Below, piece by piece: positions 8,608 to 43,456 of a stretch of 52,734 nt of DNA. How positions within the stretch are numbered: the stretch's first letter is position 1; every line of letters begins with the position of its first letter. The stretch lies in UHGV virus genome UHGV-0124967; one strand, given 5' to 3'. The notes under the pieces are model-generated. The model saw only the letters and a program-made list of their open reading frames with translations. It was not told where the DNA came from and made no database searches. The DNA is from a virus. A program made the position numbers and the translations under genes.

Positions 8608-8661
8608 TTTCTCACCTTGTCATTCTGTGATCTGCGTCACGCTAAATCATACCAAAATGGA

Positions 8662-10224: not shown

Positions 10225-10285
10225 AAAACCCCCCCATAAGTTACATTTTGTATATATCTTTACGCGCTTCTACGCGAAAAATAAG

Positions 10286-10302
10286 ATCATTGTCACAATG
10301 AT
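10286..10302. promoter_or_regulatory. perfect palindrome ATCATTG-TCA-CAATGAT (possible operator)
   Basis: 7-3-7 inverted repeat between divergent M and plus-strand moron genes. Confidence 0.3.
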
Positions 10303-10913: not shown

Positions 10914-13250
10914 GCGGCGAGGTTGCAACATTCCGCCTGGTCTTTGAGATTCCCTTGTTATCATTTTCATGGCTACACGTTCCATTGTTAATTCAAGTCT
11001 GCGGCTGTCTTCGTCGCTGAATCCGTTCGTGGTCTGAATGCTGATACTGACAGGCATACTAATACCGCCACCGCCGCCAATATCACGGCCCGGAATAACT
11101 CTGCCGTTCTCGCCAGGAATCATATATTGATTCCCGTTAGATGTCTGGAATAGCTCCGGCCTGTTGTGTTCCCCTACACGGTACATATTGCCACCAATGA
11201 CGCTACCACCATTAAAGCGACCGCCGCCAAAAATTGACGTAGCCAGCGACATGATCGCAGTGAGTGCCGCAGAACCAGCCGCCGCCCATGCGCCGCCAGT
11301 TGACGCCGCTGTTGCCGCCGCCGCCGGGGCCGCCGCCGCAGCAATCTGGCCTTGCGCCGCTACCGCGCCCGCCGTGGTACTTGCCTGAGTCGCTTTGCTT
11401 TGCGTTTCCATCATGATCTGATCTGCTATCCAGTTTGCAGCTATGTCTGAAAGCCTGTTACCGATATTCCCGAGGATATTGCTGCCTAAGTTAGCAAAAA
11501 CATCACTCAATGATTGAGTACCATTTAACAGGCCAACAAGTGCATTGCTCATACCACCTTTAAGGCCATTAACGCAATCACCGATAAGGCTGTTTGTGTC
11601 GCTTTGCGCCTGCCATTGCTCCCACTTCAGATCGCGGATCTGTTGCTCATAGGCTAACAGTTCCTGTTTCTGTTGCGCTTCCGTCACGCCCAGGTCGATA
11701 AGCATTTGCTTACGGACGGCCCATTCATTTTGAACCTGCTGAATAGGGTCTACTTCGCCCTTTAGCTGATCCATCGGGCTTACTATTTGCTCCCATTTGT
11801 CGCGCAATTCCTCTACCGGAATTTGTGCTAATTCTTCCTTTAGTTCCTTACCTATCCCTTTTTGCGCGGCGCGGTACTCAAGGAGAGTGATTTTACCCTG
11901 GGCGAATGCAGCATCAATGGCCTTGCCGCTCTCTAACGCTTTGCGCATAGCGGCGGCGTCTTTGTTGTACTGGTCAGAAACGCTTATACCTTTATCGCCA
12001 AGACGATCAGCTTCAGATTTCTTCTCTTTTTTCTGTTTTTTCGGTTTGTCTACTGGCTTGCCGGATCCGGTAATCGCTCCGTCATTGGCGGCATTCTGTT
12101 CATTTTTCCTTGCTTCTTCTGTAGCCTGGATTGCTGCGGTCAGATCATCCTGTAGTTGCATGACCTTGCCAACGGTCTTACCGTATTTCTTCTCGTAGTT
12201 GCTGTTATATTCGTCGGTTTGCTCTCCTACGACCTCCTTCATCCATTTGTAGGCATCCATTAGTGCCTTGATTGGCGTCACCATTGCGATGATCTTCTCG
12301 GCTACCTCGCCAGCCTTGATTCTGACATCTTCAAACATGTCGATGAATTCGCCACCAGCCGTCTTCAGGGTGTTAAAGCAGGTTTTAGCGAAATCAGCGC
12401 CTTCACTTAAAGCCTTAACACCTTTCGTTACAAGATCGATACCAGCAACAACCGTATCGGATACACCGAAAAGATCATCCAATTGCTCAACAAGTCCCAT
12501 AACCTCGACTTTAAGCTCATTCAGGGCCATGCCGGATGTGCGCGGCAACTGCGCAAACTTCTCGTTTGTTTCCTGCGTAGCCGCCTGGATTGCGTTAACC
12601 ATCCTTTCTGCCGTGATCTTACCGTCCAGCATTTCGGCGCGGAATTGGCCCATTGATAACCCCATCTGGCGTGCCATTGTCTGTACGATGGTCGGGGTGT
12701 TTTCTAACAGGCTGTTGAATTCTTCAGCACGCAACACGCCACCGTCGATAGACTGACGGAATTGACGCATTGAGTTTGACATCTGCTCCGCTGACGCGCC
12801 GCCCAACGCCCCCATTTTCTGAATCGTACCTACCAGGTTAAGCAATTGCCCTTCAGTGGCGGACGTGTTCTTCAGTGAGATAGCTAAGCCTTGCCACAGA
12901 TCCCCGGTATCCTTCATGCTTTGGCCTGTTTCTTTTGATATTGCTTTCAGGCCATCAAAAACCCGTCCGGCGGACTCCGCATCGCCCGTAAGCATTTTGA
13001 TTTTTACGCGAAGCATTTTTGCTTGCTCCGCCATATCCATAAATTGACGCACGGCCTCCGCAGCAATTAGCAAATGGATAACCCTGGTCAGTGCCTTGAT
13101 GGATGTTTTCAGGGTGTTTACCTGGCGGTCAGCCTGTTTTGCGCCGCGCTCTATACGCCCAAAGGCCTGGTCTGCCTGTCGTTGTGCAACGAGAAGTTGA
13201 CCAGTTTTCGCATCAACTTCGTAATAAATTGTACCTACACTGGTAGCCAT
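10908..13250 (-). CDS. H: tail tape measure protein
   Basis: 780 aa; alpha-helical Ala/Gln-rich body, Gly-rich C-terminus; between chaperone and M. Confidence 0.85.
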   Translation of the reverse strand: MATSVGTIYYEVDAKTGQLLVAQRQADQAFGRIERGAKQADRQVNTLKTSIKALTRVIHLLIAAEAVRQFMDMAEQAKMLRVKIKMLTGDAESAGRVFDGLKAISKETGQSMKDTGDLWQGLAISLKNTSATEGQLLNLVGTIQKMGALGGASAEQMSNSMRQFRQSIDGGVLRAEEFNSLLENTPTIVQTMARQMGLSMGQFRAEMLDGKITAERMVNAIQAATQETNEKFAQLPRTSGMALNELKVEVMGLVEQLDDLFGVSDTVVAGIDLVTKGVKALSEGADFAKTCFNTLKTAGGEFIDMFEDVRIKAGEVAEKIIAMVTPIKALMDAYKWMKEVVGEQTDEYNSNYEKKYGKTVGKVMQLQDDLTAAIQATEEARKNEQNAANDGAITGSGKPVDKPKKQKKEKKSEADRLGDKGISVSDQYNKDAAAMRKALESGKAIDAAFAQGKITLLEYRAAQKGIGKELKEELAQIPVEELRDKWEQIVSPMDQLKGEVDPIQQVQNEWAVRKQMLIDLGVTEAQQKQELLAYEQQIRDLKWEQWQAQSDTNSLIGDCVNGLKGGMSNALVGLLNGTQSLSDVFANLGSNILGNIGNRLSDIAANWIADQIMMETQSKATQASTTAGAVAAQGQIAAAAAPAAAATAASTGGAWAAAGSAALTAIMSLATSIFGGGRFNGGSVIGGNMYRVGEHNRPELFQTSNGNQYMIPGENGRVIPGRDIGGGGGISMPVSISIQTTNGFSDEDSRRLELTMERVAMKMITRESQRPGGMLQPRRK

Positions 13251-13303
13251 GATTTAACCTCATGCAAAAATGTGATCTGTGTATCTATTTTATACAAAAT
13301 GGC

Positions 13304-13332
13304 TTTACTTCAACGACTACATTTTGTATAAA
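13304..13332 (+). promoter_or_regulatory. putative promoter for lipoprotein moron
   Basis: TTTACT (13304-13309), 17 bp, TG-n-TATAAA (13324-13332); partner inverted copy at 13291-13302 faces tape measure. Confidence 0.45.
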
Positions 13333-13377
13333 GAAGCCAAAGGGAATGGTCAGTAAATCAAGTTAGCGAGGTGGGTT

Positions 13378-14037
13378 ATGAAACGGTTAGCAAAAGTGGC
13401 AATGATTGCGGCGGTATTGGGTCTGGTTGGTTGCAATGAGGATAATGAAAAAGCGCCTATAGTGACCACTCAAGAACAACAAGCATTAGCAGAGAAAAAT
13501 GCTAAATGGCTTGCAGAACAACAAGCAAAACAAGCCGCATATGAGGCACAGTTAGCAAAAGAAAAAGCTGGTAAACAGTGGCTTGTGGTCGAAAGAAAAG
13601 ATGATATGCAGGACACAAAAAACGTGTTCCTTTTCGTGAAAGCAGAACATTTCAGCGGAAGTCTTGATGCTTTCCCTACACTGAAAGCACGGGATGAAAA
13701 CAAACCTGTATTAACAATCGCTTGCCAGGGTAATAAAACAAAAATGTTCGTAGCATGGTCAAACCATGTAACTGACGCTGGGGACACTACTTATATTAAC
13801 TACCGGATCGGCGATCACAAAGCTGTAGCTACTGAATGGAGTCGGTCAACTAACTATAAAGCTCTTGGATTATGGAACGGCAAAAAAGCCATTCCAATGA
13901 TTAAAAAACTGGTTAACGAAAAACAATTTATCATTGAAGTAGTGCCGGAAGCTGGCGACATTGAGAAAGCAGTGTTTAACATTGATGGTCTTTATAACCA
14001 CATCGACAAAGTGAAAAACGCTTGCAACTGGAATTAA
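13378..14037 (+). CDS. lipoprotein, 219 aa (tail-region moron), function unknown
   Basis: ATG 13378 with GAGGTGG RBS; signal peptide with lipobox LVGC; coiled-coil-like segment; AT-rich compared with neighbours. Confidence 0.7.
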   Translation: MKRLAKVAMIAAVLGLVGCNEDNEKAPIVTTQEQQALAEKNAKWLAEQQAKQAAYEAQLAKEKAGKQWLVVERKDDMQDTKNVFLFVKAEHFSGSLDAFPTLKARDENKPVLTIACQGNKTKMFVAWSNHVTDAGDTTYINYRIGDHKAVATEWSRSTNYKALGLWNGKKAIPMIKKLVNEKQFIIEVVPEAGDIEKAVFNIDGLYNHIDKVKNACNWN

Positions 14038-26786: not shown

Positions 26787-26987
26787 TTACTTATTCCCCA
26801 TTCGCGCGTCGTGTTCCTCTTGCGCCCGCTTGTTCTCCTGTGATTTGAAGTAATAATTAACGGCAAATGTGCCTACGGTTGATAAGATACCAACGAAAAC
26901 AGCGATGTCATTGATGGTTATCGCGCCGAAAAAAGCAGTTACGGCCCCAGTCACATACGCACACGCCTCACGTATTCTGTCGAACAT
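26787..26987 (-). CDS. class II holin (pinholin-like)
   Basis: 66 aa, two hydrophobic segments, charged C-terminus; directly upstream of SAR endolysin. Confidence 0.7.
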   Translation of the reverse strand: MFDRIREACAYVTGAVTAFFGAITINDIAVFVGILSTVGTFAVNYYFKSQENKRAQEEHDARMGNK

Positions 26988-26999
26988 GGATTTTCCTCC

Positions 27000-27028
27000 A
27001 ACAAAGCAAAACCCGGCGCGGGGCCGGG
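27000..27028 (-). terminator. intrinsic terminator in late leader (tR'-like)
   Basis: CCCGGC-GCGGG-GCCGGG hairpin followed on minus strand by T-rich TTTTGCTTTGTT, about 20 nt upstream of holin RBS. Confidence 0.5.
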
Positions 27029-27056
27029 TAATTACAATTTCGCATTGTTAGGAAAT

Positions 27057-27085
27057 ATTTTAATCTGTTTGTTTGCGCTCTACAA
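27057..27085 (-). promoter_or_regulatory. putative late promoter (pR'-like)
   Basis: Minus strand TTGTAG (27085..27080), 17 bp, TAAAAT (27062..27057); leader of about 50 nt ends in the hairpin above. Confidence 0.45.
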
Positions 27086-27813: not shown

Positions 27814-28095
27814 TTATTCTCCTTCGTAAAGAGTTGCCACCAGTTCGGCATCTGTTAGCGTGTTATAATCTGTATAAAACCCGCAACGCATAAGTGAAGA
27901 AAGGCCAGCCACTTTGCACCACATAGGGGTCGATTCGCTCAAATATTCATTCTCCCTTTTTTCGCTGTATTCCAGTTCATAAAACCGACTATTGTTAACA
28001 CCCTCAATTACACGGCTGTATGTGCCATCAAGCCTACTAACTCCGCGCCATAGTCTGATCACAACCATAATTTCTACTCCGTTTGATGGGGCCAT
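27814..28095 (-). CDS. hypothetical protein, 93 aa (or 84 aa from ATG 28068, which has a GGAG RBS)
   Basis: Track ORF; stop 4 nt before next gene start. Confidence 0.5.
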   Translation of the reverse strand: MAPSNGVEIMVVIRLWRGVSRLDGTYSRVIEGVNNSRFYELEYSEKRENEYLSESTPMWCKVAGLSSLMRCGFYTDYNTLTDAELVATLYEGE

Positions 28096-28107
28096 TCGGC
28101 CCCGTGT

Positions 28108-28257: not shown

Positions 28258-28536
28258 TTATGCCATGCGTGCAAATTCAAGTGATTTGCATTCGTAGTCT
28301 TCCTCTGCCTGTTCGATGACTGCCATCATCATTTCGTTTGCGTTGTTGAATGCGTTGCTTTGTGCGAACTTGTCGGCTCCACCTTCTTCTTCGAACTCCG
28401 CGTTGTTTGCTGCAATGTAGTGATATTCGATGTTGTTCAGGTAAGGGCTTGCAGCGTGTGCTGGGTCTTCTTTCTCCACCATCTCCCAAAATGCGTTTAA
28501 GCGAGATTCGACTTCTTTGTTAATCCAGCGTTTCAT
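28258..28536 (-). CDS. hypothetical acidic protein, 92 aa
   Basis: GGAGGG RBS; preceded by 98-bp intergenic region with inverted repeat and CRP-like site. Confidence 0.5.
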   Translation of the reverse strand: MKRWINKEVESRLNAFWEMVEKEDPAHAASPYLNNIEYHYIAANNAEFEEEGGADKFAQSNAFNNANEMMMAVIEQAEEDYECKSLEFARMA

Positions 28537-28617
28537 TTTTCTACCCTCCGCATCGTTCTCTCTTCAGCTTCTTTATAACAAAATGGCACTGCCGAAACAA
28601 TGCCATTTCGTAAACCT

Positions 28618-28633
28618 TGTGATACAGATCACA
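28618..28633. promoter_or_regulatory. CRP-consensus-like palindrome TGTGA-N6-TCACA
   Basis: TGTGATACAGATCACA; adjacent to inverted repeat AAATGGCA...TGCCATTT (28582-28608). Confidence 0.35.
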
Positions 28634-28634
28634 T

Positions 28635-28859
28635 TTACGTTTCTTCCGTAAAAGTAACCTTCATCGCCCCATCCGAACTACGGACAACATAACGACCAAT
28701 ACCGCCTAGCGGCCCTGCATACCATAAGTGACCGTAAGTGTCAGTCACGACGATAAACGGAAATTTAGGAGACAATCCCATCGGTTTTTCAGCCGTATAC
28801 TGTGCGCCTTCTTCAAAACAGCCTAATTTCGATTCGTTACACGTTAAAATCATTTTCAT
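28635..28859 (-). CDS. small protein, paralogue family member A (74 aa)
   Basis: Shares F..G.IY...D..G.LW.F-type pattern with the next three genes. Confidence 0.55.
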   Translation of the reverse strand: MKMILTCNESKLGCFEEGAQYTAEKPMGLSPKFPFIVVTDTYGHLWYAGPLGGIGRYVVRSSDGAMKVTFTEET

Positions 28860-32305: not shown

Positions 32306-32501
32306 CCTTCACCTCGCGACGATAGATTTCTACTGGCTTAACCGGAATAGCGTTAAAATCACCTTCATCCAGTGCGGCAATAAACGTTAGCGCCAACCGT
32401 GCTTCAACACCGCTTAAATACTTGCACCATGCCTCACCGTTATAATCTTTAAAAAGAATAATCACTTTTTCATGTTTATCTCTTGTTGTTTCATTATTCA
32501 C
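32295..32501 (-). CDS. hypothetical protein, 68 aa, non-ATG (GTG) start
   Basis: No in-frame ATG; begins at GTG overlapping the Q stop. Confidence 0.4.
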   Translation of the reverse strand: MNNETTRDKHEKVIILFKDYNGEAWCKYLSGVEARLALTFIAALDEGDFNAIPVKPVEIYRREVKDEA

Positions 32502-33216
32502 CCCGTGTCACTCGTTTAATTTCGTTATCAGCCCGCGCCTCTTCTTTGAACAATTCAGTAATGGCGTCTTCATAGAAAGCACGGTATTTCTTCCACCACG
32601 TTGATCGGCTTACCGGAAATACAAGCTGATTAACCGCACGCCGGACAAGATCTACAGGGAAACGCGAGTACCCGCGCCCGCCGCAATGCTGGCACGTTTT
32701 GAACACTGGCATTTCCGCTGCTTCACTGGCTGCTTTATCCGGTATCTCGCCGCGCCCTTTGCATCGTTTACAATGATTGCGAACTTTTCCATGCCCCTTG
32801 CATTTTTTGCAAAGGTGTTTTTCTCCGTAGTCGTCAAACGTAAATTTATATCCGCCGCAATCCATACAAGTTTTTTCTGTCGCGGCACTCTGGCAGTAAT
32901 CCCGAAACGCGAAAACGGCAACAAGAATAATAAGATCATTGCGTTTGTCCTCGTCCAACTCCATGACGTATTCGTAATCTTTTGCCATAGCTCTTAAACG
33001 CTCTGTAAGCAAAACTACGGCCCTGTGTTTTTCGGCTTGCGATAATTCCATCTTCCCTAAAAAAGCGCTATAACCAAGCTCTACGCGCGATTGCGCCATA
33101 CCTGCTGCGGTTAGTGCATCAGTAGTATTAAGCGAGTCTGGGGACGTGCCCCGGCTTTCATCTGACAAACGCGGTGATTTTGGGAAGTGGAATTTAAGAA
33201 TAGATTCCAAATTCAT
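32494..33216 (-). CDS. Q: late-gene antitermination protein Q (zinc-finger type)
   Basis: 240 aa; four CxxCxGxG repeats; follows RusA and a small gene as in nin regions. Confidence 0.65.
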   Translation of the reverse strand: MNLESILKFHFPKSPRLSDESRGTSPDSLNTTDALTAAGMAQSRVELGYSAFLGKMELSQAEKHRAVVLLTERLRAMAKDYEYVMELDEDKRNDLIILVAVFAFRDYCQSAATEKTCMDCGGYKFTFDDYGEKHLCKKCKGHGKVRNHCKRCKGRGEIPDKAASEAAEMPVFKTCQHCGGRGYSRFPVDLVRRAVNQLVFPVSRSTWWKKYRAFYEDAITELFKEEARADNEIKRVTRGE

Positions 33217-34595: not shown

Positions 34596-34754
34596 AATGC
34601 TCCCTCCCTTTAAGGTGATTTCTACGCATTTCAGCGCTGCCGGATTTTTAAAGAGCATTTCGTTTGCTTGAAGTATACAAAATGGATACACGTAAACAAG
34701 ACGAAAAGCGCCATTATGTGACCTGTATCACACAATGACGCCATTTTGTAAACT

Positions 34755-35516
34755 TCAGTCCGGTAAAACGCGGTTGAGCGTAGTACGATTGATGGCCCGG
34801 TCGTTAGCCAGGAATACAGCACGGGCAAAGCCACGCGGCGTTAGTGAGCGGATCATCTTAGTGCGTTTCGACTTTCCTCCTAACTTAGCGTGCTGCTTAC
34901 TGTCTTCCCATTCATCAGGCATTGGCACAGGCAGGAATAGCGGCTGATTAAATCCATTCCCGCACCAGATACAAGTTTTCTTCGTGTATGCGTCGCGGTC
35001 GGCGATGTATTCCGGGAAGGCAGGATGTTTGTCATCTTCAGGCAGGTAGCCACCGTAAGCGCACGGGTTGAAGATAAAATCCGGCTTACGCCATAACGTT
35101 GACAGCGCACCTACCGGATTTTCCACCATCCACGGGACGTGGTACATATCAGCAAGCGTTTCTACCAGTTTTGCGTTGTATGCCGCCTTCTGCTGGAAGT
35201 AAGGTTCTTTTTTCCGCTTATCAGCAAACCAGCGAGCGCCGGACACCGCAAGATCGTCGCACGGAGGAAAGCCCAGGATAATGTCAGGATCTGGATAAAC
35301 AGACAATTCAGGGGAGAACATTACCAGGAAATGGCTGTCAATCCATACGTTGATATACTCAATGTTCGGATGAATGATTTTTGACGCCTTCATAATCGCC
35401 GTGATTAGCGCCATCATAGTTGAAGCAATAGCATTTATAACCAGCGTCGGCCCAATCTTTAACGGCGTATCCGCTGCCGTCGTACAGCGACCACACCACC
35501 CAATTTCTAAGTCCAC
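34755..35516 (-). CDS. DNA cytosine-5 methyltransferase-like protein (short, atypical N-terminus)
   Basis: PDPDIILGFPPCDDLAVSG resembles motif IV and WMVENPVG motif VI; no clean motif I, so may be truncated or frameshifted. Confidence 0.5.
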   Translation of the reverse strand: MDLEIGWCGRCTTAADTPLKIGPTLVINAIASTMMALITAIMKASKIIHPNIEYINVWIDSHFLVMFSPELSVYPDPDIILGFPPCDDLAVSGARWFADKRKKEPYFQQKAAYNAKLVETLADMYHVPWMVENPVGALSTLWRKPDFIFNPCAYGGYLPEDDKHPAFPEYIADRDAYTKKTCIWCGNGFNQPLFLPVPMPDEWEDSKQHAKLGGKSKRTKMIRSLTPRGFARAVFLANDRAINRTTLNRVLPD

Positions 35517-37906: not shown

Positions 37907-38322
37907 GCCTCACCTCATATGGTATTCAATAAACCACCTAATAAACAGGCATAAGGCAATAAAACACCAGCAACAGCACATATAAAACAATGTGTCGTCC
38001 ATAATTAAGCCTCAATAACACCATAATCAAACGTGCCTAAATACTGTTCGATACTTACAACCTCAATACCATCAATGCACCGTTTCTACACAGACACCCT
38101 GCTTTCATTTTCCCGGAAGTGCATATTAGAAAGCACTTCATCGGCTGGATAGCCTTTCCCAGCGACGTAGGCATCGAGACCTACTCCACCCTCAACACAA
38201 TAAAGCATTAATTCGCTGGCCATCTTGTTTTCCTCCGCGCCGTAAACCTTTTGATTTCAGTTCACAAAACGGATTCGCGATCACAACACAAAATGTATTT
38301 TTATGTGATCGCCATCACTATG

Positions 38323-42003: not shown

Positions 42004-42465
42004 AATCTGATCTCCGTATATCCTTGATAAAAATTAATAAAAATCATCTTCGTTAATTGCCGCACTTCCAGCGGCTGACCAGATTGTTAATGAGCGGCTT
42101 AACATCTTTCAACTAATCCCGCAATCATCGCCGTTCCCGGCGTGACCTTGCTCACTCCAAGCAAGCTGACTCGTCGCCTTGCGTGCGGTTTCGTGGGGGA
42201 TGTAACGCTTTAAACACCCCATGCGCCTTGTTATCAGTGCCGCTTTCGGTCCCCCATCGGGGAGTTACTCCACGGTTGACAAGGTGTTAAGCCTGATTTT
42301 TAAAGTGCCAGGAAGTTGCTTTTGTTACCTGCGACCTTCCTTTGACTCGCAATATACGCCCCGTAAAACATCGAGTCAATCCATTTTGTATACTTTTTTA
42401 AAATATTTTATATGCTATTGATATTTAAACAATAAATAACGTTTTCTGTTTACGTTTTGGCGTTT

Positions 42466-42502: not shown

Positions 42503-43150
42503 TTATGGCAGGTTTACGATCTTCGCATCAACCACCACGCCTATAATTTTTGATTCTGGATTCATAGGGATTGGCGGATACAGCGGATTGAGCGAACGTA
42601 AAAGCCTTTGACCTCCATCAATAATCAACTGTTTAAACGTCGGTATCTGCCATTCCTCAAGCTGGGCTATAACCAGTTTGCCGTCAATAGCTGGCGCGTG
42701 CGGGTCAACAAGTATCATCGTCCCCGCCGGGATGCTCAACCCCTGCGGCGCGTTCATTGATTCACCTTTGGCAACCAGCCAGTAACTGTCATCTGAACAA
42801 ATAACGCTAGTCGTAACGTGTCGTAATGCTGAACGCCTTGCGTCATCCATATTGTTTACTGTGTCCTTCCAGTCAATAACCGGGTAACTACCTAAATCAC
42901 GCGGCGGCACAGCCTGAAGTGTATTAGAAACAGAATCATCAATGACCATACCATCATGTGTAACAGTGAACTGCCGACGACCAAGCTCTCGCATAATCCG
43001 CGCAATATCTTCAAGATTTGGCTCGCGGCGACCGTTCAGCCAGTGTGACAGGTCGCCTTTAGTTATCCCCATGCGATCCGCTAGTGAATCCTGGCTCATG
43101 CCCTGCGCCCGCATGAGCTGCTTTGCTAAGTCATACCATTTTGTTTTCAT
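42503..43150 (-). CDS. CI-like repressor (HTH plus S24 LexA-like self-cleaving domain)
   Basis: 215 aa; N-terminal HTH (QDSLADRMGITKGDLSHWLNGRR), C-terminal GESM...K pattern. Confidence 0.85.
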   Translation of the reverse strand: MKTKWYDLAKQLMRAQGMSQDSLADRMGITKGDLSHWLNGRREPNLEDIARIMRELGRRQFTVTHDGMVIDDSVSNTLQAVPPRDLGSYPVIDWKDTVNNMDDARRSALRHVTTSVICSDDSYWLVAKGESMNAPQGLSIPAGTMILVDPHAPAIDGKLVIAQLEEWQIPTFKQLIIDGGQRLLRSLNPLYPPIPMNPESKIIGVVVDAKIVNLP

Positions 43151-43210
43151 GTCGCTACCCTATAACCTCAAAAAAGTTTGATGCAAGTCACAAAACGTGT
43201 ATTTTAAGCC

Positions 43211-43238
43211 TTGATCTTAAAATTCCATTTTGTAAACT
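43211..43238 (+). promoter_or_regulatory. putative rightward early promoter (pR-like)
   Basis: TTGATC (43211-43216), 16 bp, TG-n-TAAACT (43231-43238); followed by palindromes. Confidence 0.45.
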
Positions 43239-43275: not shown

Positions 43276-43456
43276 GAAAAAGATAACGGAAGGCACAAAA
43301 AGGCACTTACCTTAAGCTCTTTAAAAATCCGGTGTCGCTGCGAAGCGAAAAACAAATATCACGCAACGGCGGGATCTGTTGAGCGGTCAGTCACTGCTAT
43401 CTAATGCTAATGGGATGCCCGCCCGCGCGTTCACTCTAACCATAGGAGAAAACACG

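Follow-up and report, generated by a model that had tools for sequence, protein, structure and literature searches.

The gap at positions 28537-28634 of a virus genome of 52,734 nucleotides (UHGV-0124967; the whole stretch is referred to here as the window) is best explained as a conserved cassette of mEpimmI-group temperate coliphages, a reading to which we give about an even chance. The cassette would be read on the minus strand and would combine a terminator, a sigma-70 promoter and a CRP site. The sequences of these elements, the pattern of their conservation among relatives, a strand-specific hairpin and a box-to-promoter geometry that is repeated elsewhere in the window are all observed; from them we infer termination, promoter activity, CRP binding and activation at the gap. 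With terminator, CRP site and promoter packed into about 65 bp, the cassette would be a compact part.

In the proposed model, the intrinsic terminator would end early transcription coming from upstream, and RNA polymerase modified by Gp17 and Nus would read through the gap hairpin. From the fused sigma-70 promoter, a new transcript would begin near 28565 and serve the last small genes ahead of the late (lysis) region, with cAMP-CRP positioned at about -60.5 to -61.5 and recruiting RNA polymerase via the alpha C-terminal domain, and the restart promoter would depend on the host catabolite state. The restart transcripts, which would have no boxA downstream, would run through the 92-, 46-, 93-, 107- and 75-aa ORFs and stop at a strong hairpin at 27029-27011.

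Phage group and gene context

The window represents a temperate coliphage or prophage of the mEpimmI group (mEp021-like), its closest records being those of Escherichia phages mEp044, mEp010, mEp554, mEp013 and MagusPhagus. A stretch of 181 bases around the gap recurs with 100% identity in 7 complete E. coli genomes, and the gap cassette is found in 32 of 5426 complete E. coli genomes. Among phage records, all cassette matches are mEpimmI, and no match outside the mEpimmI group was found among GTDB species representatives. The mEpimmI phages, a gut-prevalent family first described in 2025, are temperate, Nus-dependent and non-lambdoid, and have a CI-like repressor, a Q-like protein and an operon with an N-like antiterminator, Gp17, which acts on the nut sites nutL, nutR1 and nutR2 (PMC11893012). 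CRP is not named in that paper, and its supplements make no mention of promoters, terminators or CRP.

The positions of the genes for the Q-like protein, the methyltransferase and the N-like ARM protein in the window agree with PMC11893012. The LexA/CI-like repressor gene (42503..43150), the gene for the N-like protein (start 42002), the methyltransferase gene (34755..35516) and the Q-like gene (32494..33216) are all on the minus strand, and Arg 17, 19, 20, 21 and 24 of the N-like protein match the arginines described as conserved in PMC11893012. BoxA-like sequences are located at 43315 (plus strand) and 34648 (minus strand).

From the Q-like gene it is 3.9 kb downstream to the gap, and a further 1.55 kb separates the gap from the holin gene. 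The genes around the gap are all on the minus strand, and the element is therefore to be read as the reverse complement. The initial annotation regarded it as the only sizeable gap inside the small-gene array; this depends on the gene calls: the PGAP annotation of an identical prophage has 7 other gaps of at least 97 bp in the interval between the Q-like and holin genes, and a very similar regulatory gap, which holds the second exact CRP core, is seen on the minus strand at 34599-34754. Upstream of the gap is a 74-aa ORF of unknown function (28635..28859, minus strand), the stop codon of which abuts the box, and downstream is a 92-aa ORF (28258..28536, minus strand; phrog_7287, function unknown), the first gene of the putative downstream unit. 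For the proteins flanking the gap, comparison with PHROGs and Pfam returned unknown-function families and sub-threshold hits only. Among relatives, the flanking genes vary exactly at the cassette, with at least 6 upstream and at least 4 downstream contexts, and the cassette would account for the exchange of accessory gene blocks among relatives with their regulation kept.

Layout of the gap

Read on the minus strand, the gap begins after the stop codon of the 74-aa ORF and contains, in this order, a CRP-consensus box, a hairpin, a -10 element and a Shine-Dalgarno (SD) sequence, followed by the ATG of the 92-aa ORF. The stop codon is a TAA at 28637-28635, and the 22-bp CRP-type site (AAATGTGATCTGTATCACAAGG; 28615-28636, minus strand) starts within it. 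At its core is a CRP-type palindrome at 28618-28633, which is TGTGATACAGATCACA in plus-strand reading and TGTGATCTGTATCACA on the minus strand; the exact TGTGA-N6-TCACA match that had been reported for these 16 positions is indeed there.

The RNA hairpin (28578..28611, minus strand) has a 15-bp stem, ACGAAAUGGCAUUGU / GCAGUGCCAUUUUGU, with a UUCG loop at 28593-28596, and its U-rich tail AUUUUGUUAU (28573..28582, minus strand) partly pairs with the A-tract of the 5' arm. A -35-like TTGTTT (28595..28600, minus strand) is located in the hairpin apex, 17 bp downstream of the box, and an extended -10 element, TGtTATAAA (28572..28580, minus strand), has its TG at 28580-28579 and its hexamer at 28577-28572. 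The spacer between them closes with a copy of the 9-mer motif CCATTTTGT (28586-28578, minus strand), which continues into the extended -10 element. On the sense strand, the 3' arm GCAGUGCCAUUUUGU of the hairpin is followed by UAUAAAG and then by GGAGGG, the SD sequence of the 92-aa ORF (28549-28544), the ATG of which is at 28536-28534.

A predicted terminator hairpin

The hairpin is the best-supported part of the gap. The inverted repeat AAATGGCA-N12-TGCCATTT, noted earlier as a neighbour of the palindrome, is present and turns out to be longer than described, being contained in the 15-bp stem on the sense strand. This strand folds with -19.9 kcal/mol (z = -5.7), and none of 200 shuffled sequences (0/200) folds as well; the antisense hairpin reaches only -11.2 kcal/mol, because four of the stem pairs are G-U. 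In mEp044 (T7), mEp010 (T8) and mEp554 (T10), the corresponding stretch carries the annotation of a Rho-independent terminator predicted with ARNold.

Variants of the cassette were collected in two rounds, 17 with a pattern inside the hairpin and then 30 with the loop and the 3' arm left free; in this set of 30 relatives, the patterns searched for already prescribed positions G2-T8 of the box (GTGATCT) and a part of the hairpin. With the 3' arm thus unconstrained, a stem of -19 to -20 kcal/mol is kept in 29 of the 30 relatives, and the antisense RNA of the variants always folds more weakly (-6 to -15 kcal/mol). The variation that occurs is either in the four loop bases or preserves pairing (A-U to G-U, U-A to U-G, U-G to U-A) and includes no double compensatory change, so that it represents conservation with wobble-compatible drift and not a proof of covariation. 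Most relatives have UUCG, UACG or UCCG as the loop, and others have UCAG, UUAG, UUCA or UUUG; conservation of a UNCG loop, which we considered, is hence only partly true.

The U tract, located after the GC core of the hairpin, is short (4 U, then GUU), and 4-5 bases of AUUUUGUUAU can pair with the A tract. A simple terminator scan of the window did not list the gap hairpin, probably because the maximal stem absorbs the U run, and a search against Rfam gave nothing at the gathering threshold, the one match, to mir-33, being at chance level (17 bits vs 50, E = 0.9). We read the inverted repeat as a predicted sense-strand intrinsic terminator hairpin. A role of the repeat as a second operator was rejected in favour of this sense-strand RNA hairpin, which is annotated as a terminator in relatives, and a sigma-54 reading of TGGCAT-N5-CGGCA in the hairpin was discarded on account of a mismatched -12 element. 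The initial annotation had further suggested that the distal part of the array could be regulated independently of the phage early promoter, and at the level of sequence this has support: the predicted terminator hairpin is placed directly upstream of the -10 element, and early transcripts arriving from upstream would then have no part in the expression of the downstream genes.

The predicted promoter element and its recurrent motif

The predicted gap promoter has the form TTGTTT-17-TATAAA with a TGn before the hexamer. Its -35 element matches 3 of 6 consensus positions and is thus below the threshold of a simple promoter scan of the window, which skipped it and did not list the gap promoter. 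As a rule, an extended -10 element compensates for a weak -35. The -10 hexamer is TATAAA or TATATA in 26 of the 30 relatives, and transcription would be expected to start near 28565.

The -10 element is accompanied by the 9-mer CCATTTTGT, which is present in 14 copies in the window against 0.8 expected (e.g. at 1686, 8714, 10315, 13294, 28578, 34677, 34741, 42381, 43225 and 46824). The copies are followed by a TAnnnT-like hexamer, and for at least 11 of the scanned copies (pattern C[AG]TTTTGT) a same-strand gene begins 28-160 nt further downstream. Two of the promoter-like elements formed with the motif, the PL-like promoter and the pre-nutR2 promoter, are followed by boxA nut sequences; these elements sit where promoters are expected. 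It is this motif family that speaks for the gap promoter. Across 13 variants of the nutR2 module, a conserved CTTGT (the -35) and a conserved GTATCC(A/G)TTTTGTATACT block are separated by variable bases. In sum, CCATTTTGT looks like a phage-specific promoter spacer motif. It was also considered as a palindromic operator, which was rejected, as the copies have no consistent dyad and no fixed spacing between them. Neither the sigma-70 nor the CRP model accounts for the conserved CCA-TTTTG portion of the spacer, which could mark an additional factor.

The motif also gives rise to another reading of the inverted repeat, to which we assign only a small chance, namely that it consists of two back-to-back copies of CCATTTTGT and forms a divergent promoter pair and not a terminator, with an antisense RNA to the upstream ORF made from one arm. 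Both hairpin arms are indeed copies of the over-represented motif, the plus-strand arm is the -10-like CCATTTTGTATAC or CCATTTCGTATACT in many relatives, and a true pair of this kind exists at 13301/13320. However, pairing in the gap reaches past the motif (GGCAUUGU / GCAGUGCC), base pairs at positions that vary are preserved solely in the sense RNA, and the plus-strand -10 lacks its final T in the window and in many relatives, all of which speaks against such a pair.

The location of the gap between the Q-like gene and the lysis genes, and the hairpin contained in it, would also suit a Q-dependent late promoter, that is, an analogue of PR'-tR'. This is very improbable and was dropped: the gap hairpin is upstream of the -10 element and not downstream of it, and a better PR'-tR' candidate is located at 27085-27011, directly before the holin gene. 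There, on the minus strand, TTGTAG-17-TAAAAT (27085-27057) is followed about 20 nt later by ACCCGGCCCCGCGCCGGGT and a U tract, directly ahead of the holin ATG at 26987; the GC-rich terminator of this candidate is at 27029-27011. The stretch at 27011-27085 is a probable pair of late promoter and terminator analogous to PR'-tR'; the Q-like gene is 5.4 kb upstream of it, with about 25 small ORFs between.

The CRP-type box

Exact TGTGA-N6-TCACA sequences, as defined for the CRP motif in PMC10199772, are present at 2 sites in the 52.7-kb window (28618 and 34717), compared with about 0.07 expected from shuffled sequences, and tolerating a single mismatch raises the count to 6, where 1.5 would be expected. 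At the gap, the match to the CRP consensus takes in the flanking AAA and TCT. Against what we take to be the 22-bp CRP consensus, the left half AAATGTGATCT agrees at 11 of 11 positions and the whole site at 17 of 22.

The conserved block starts exactly at the box, and the DNA upstream of it belongs to at least 6 unrelated gene contexts. The left half (A)AATGTGATCT hardly varies among relatives, and in a BLAST set of five phages, which is independent of the search patterns, it is invariant except for the first base, where T is replaced by C or A. Within the right half, which was unconstrained, C13 is kept in 27 of 30 relatives and C15 and A16 are kept in all 30. Its variants include TCACA, TTACA, TCACG, ACACA, TCGCA, CCGCA, ACGCA, CTTCA and CAGCA; in about half of the relatives this half is a weaker one, TCGCA or CCGCA, and CAGCA occurs in a single relative. 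The centre of the box varies freely (TCTGTA, TCTTTA, TCTTCA, TCTACC and others). Because the five modules described below are partly paralogous and mean cassette identity is 88%, shared descent inflates the apparent constraint.

Box position 14 shows an A-to-G dimorphism in relatives (L003, L008, L018, L021, L025 and others), by which TCGCA or CCGCA takes the place of TCACA in the promoter-proximal half of the box. TCGCA is presumably the half-site type of Sxy-dependent CRP-S sites.

When the box arms are treated as a helix, 80% are paired with no double changes (0), and pairing is lost in the class with CGCA in the right half. A reading of the palindrome as an RNA hairpin was accordingly rejected, the left arm being invariant, the changes in the right arm uncompensated and the 6-bp hairpin in isolation worth only -4.6 kcal/mol. 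Judged by this pattern of change, the palindrome is a sequence-specific site with two half-sites and not a stem, and its full-consensus CRP core makes it a candidate CRP site.

Related modules and box-to-promoter geometry

Five modules of the window, referred to by their box positions, can be aligned on the box. The gap from box to -35 is 17 bp in modules 28618, 34717, 38304 and 13271 and 18 bp in module 43177, and the spacer between -35 and -10 is 17 bp in modules 28618 and 13271 and 16 bp in modules 34717, 38304 and 43177. Three of the five have no terminator hairpin between box and promoter.

The sister module at 34672..34742 (minus strand) has its box at 34717-34732, a -35 TTGTTT at 34699-34694 and a -10 TATACT at 34677-34672. 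Here, a 16-bp hairpin (34707-34742) with a T tract has the box at its apex and is sense-biased (-23.6 vs -15.3 kcal/mol antisense), and a boxA, TGCTCTTTAAAAATCC, follows at 34657-34648, where nutR2 is expected after the methyltransferase gene. A promoter belonging to nutR2 itself is thereby suggested, and the module appears to follow the same terminator-plus-promoter logic in another arrangement. The module at 38259..38319 (minus strand) consists of the box AGTGATGGCGATCACA (38319-38304), a -35 TTGTGA (38286-38281) and a -10 TGAACT (38264-38259). The module at 43177..43238 (plus strand), with the box TTTGATGCAAGTCACA, a -35 TTGATC (43211-43216) and a -10 TAAACT (43233-43238), is the PL-like promoter of the immunity region, after which comes the boxA at 43315. 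The fifth module, at 13271..13332 (plus strand), is a paralogous one with a left half-site only (AAATGTGATCTGT), a -35 TTTACT (13304-13309) and a -10 TATAAA (13327-13332), and is located upstream of a plus-strand gene (13378..14037). Between the tape-measure gene (minus strand) and this TagO-like moron (plus strand), the stretch 13250-13378 holds back-to-back promoter-like CCATTTTGT/TATAAA elements, and the plus-strand element at 13271 is a clear paralogue of the gap cassette without the hairpin and the right half-box.

Measured from the G of the C[AG]TTTTG motif, 4 of the 6 boxes with at most one mismatch are 46.5-47.5 bp away, and none of 200,000 random placements (0/200,000) gave three or more boxes at this distance. 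When 362 distinct motif contexts of relatives are taken together, boxes with few mismatches form one sharp peak at an offset of 46.5 (39 contexts), and a secondary peak at 22.5-23.5 is due to second motif copies beside the same boxes. As the modules are partly paralogous (clearly so for 28618 and 13271), these spacing statistics show linkage and retention and not independent origins.

Two additional boxes of the TGTGATCTG type with one mismatch each, at 1692-1707 and 8626-8641, do not occupy -61.5 but coincide with predicted -35/-10 elements or with the 5' UTR of genes on the minus strand, where CRP, if bound, would repress. The sequence TGTGATCTGT is found near-verbatim at 1692, 8626, 13271 and 28633.

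The simplest alternative to the cassette is that the gap is only a terminator or RNA-end hairpin with no promoter, and that the CRP-like box is inherited and without function, or titrates CRP, at a mosaic boundary. We consider this rather unlikely. It is in line with the hairpin being the best-supported element, with the weak -35 and the fact that no scan called a promoter, and with the position of the cassette where the flanking genes switch, as recombination joints typically do; should the promoter be inactive, what is left would be an ordinary intra-operon terminator. It is opposed by three features, namely that the -10 block belongs to the 14-copy motif family upstream of genes, that the box-to-motif spacing is fixed in five modules, three of them without an intervening terminator hairpin, and that the key CRP positions of the box are kept beside entirely unrelated upstream DNA.

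Alternatively, the box may be the operator of a phage regulator or of a host factor other than CRP that acts over five promoters, its likeness to a CRP site being coincidence or mimicry. In keeping with this, the TGTGATCTGT copies (1692, 8626, 13271 and 28633) resemble one another more closely than is required of CRP sites, a number of boxes lie across -10 or -35 elements instead of being at -61.5, and the 43177 box (TTTGAT...GTCACA) is a poor CRP site. Yet besides the CI-like, MarR-like and Q-like proteins, no Crp/Fnr-type or other obvious candidate is annotated, the region upstream of the PR-like promoter is free of boxes, and at the gap the CRP consensus match extends to the flanking AAA and TCT with a spacing equal to that of lac, which leaves a non-CRP operator improbable in our view. 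The more specific idea of an immunity operator was rejected: the box nearest to the PR-like promoter, at 42141, is about 200 bp downstream, in the leader, and with no box upstream of this promoter the box is not the immunity operator.

Returning to CRP as the factor concerned, the box seems from its distribution to be a phage-wide feature and not one peculiar to the gap. This qualifies the earlier proposal that the distal part of the array is placed under host catabolite control: the exact CRP core and the lac P1 spacing are in its favour, but boxes in the same register are present at the PL-like and nutR2-linked early promoters, so that CRP input would not be specific to the distal part of the array. 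It is possible, though we hold it only tentatively, that mEpimmI phages wire a set of transcription units to cAMP-CRP through boxes in class I register, which would comprise the PL-like promoter with nutL, the pre-nutR2 promoter, 38304, the gap and tail-region moron promoters, with box, terminator and promoter forming a compact insulator cassette at two of them. If the boxes work, the carbon-source status would feed several early promoters of mEpimmI prophages, and if wiring at multiple promoters holds true, early gene dosage, and perhaps the lysis-lysogeny decision, would be directly catabolite-sensitive.

Comparison with known systems

The individual parts of the cassette are each of a known kind: a class I CRP promoter, an intrinsic terminator in an N-antiterminated operon and a moron-like unit. 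Class I CRP promoters are exemplified by lac, in which the CRP site is centred at -61.5 (PMC10199772); other positions of this class are near -71.5, -82.5 and -92.5, on the same helix face. The lac P1 promoter in the MG1655 sequence consists of TGTGAGTTAGCTCACT, 17 nt, TTTACA, 18 nt and TATGTT. The gap shares with it the TGTGA-N6-TCACA core and the 17 bp from the 16-bp core to the predicted -35. In contrast to the 18-bp spacer at lac, the gap promoter has a spacer of 17 bp, which would put the centre of its CRP site at about -60.5 if transcription starts 7 nt after the -10 hexamer; for lac, the comparison uses what we take to be its start site. The weak -35 of the gap promoter makes an activator plausible. 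Unlike lac P1, the gap promoter is a putative one, is phage-borne and has its -35 in the loop of a predicted terminator hairpin.

With regard to termination, the nearest known kinds are the tR-type terminators of N-antiterminated lambda-like early operons and t1-t5 of mEp021; at the gap, too, a stable hairpin and a U-rich tail are located within the operon of a phage with an N-like antiterminator and nut sites. The t1-t5 terminators and the nut sites of mEp021 have reportedly been mapped in an Arch Virol paper of 2023. The gap differs from terminators of this type in that its U tract is short and overlaps the stem paired with the A-tract, and in that a promoter is apparently fused to it. In the manner of moron-style units of prophages, its terminator and promoter would isolate a few accessory small genes in the most variable region, and the cassette stays while the flanking genes differ between relatives; in contrast to such units, the terminator comes before the promoter at the gap, and both would be at the upstream border of the unit.

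That host CRP can control more than one promoter in the same coliphage is known from phage T1, in which cAMP-CRP acts directly on the promoters pir, dam and recE (PMC6737242). The two phages are unrelated, and CRP represses in T1, whereas the geometry of the gap predicts activation. We know of no lambda-like regulatory circuit for which direct CRP control has been shown.

Other elements in the window

Several other regulatory elements were noticed in the window. The arms of an inverted repeat, TTGACTCG...CGAGTCAA, enclose a PR-like promoter, TTGACT-17-TATATT, near 42375-42347 (minus strand), and the -35 of this promoter is abutted by a CCATTTTGTATAC motif on the plus strand. The PL-like promoter, TTGATC-16-TAAACT, is followed by the boxA at 43315, and downstream of it are repeated CTTGC...GCAAG dyads, which may be repressor operators. 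At 10286-10302, a perfect 17-bp palindrome, ATCATTGTCACAATGAT, is located between divergent promoter-like motifs at 10244 (plus strand) and 10322 (minus strand) and adjoins a ParE-family toxin-like gene. This palindrome probably serves a toxin-antitoxin module as its operator. Finally, a GC-rich hairpin at 28086-28105, GGGGCC-ATTC-GGCCCC, has its T tract on the plus strand in a region where all annotated genes are on the minus strand, and may stop antisense transcription or act as an RNA-stability element.
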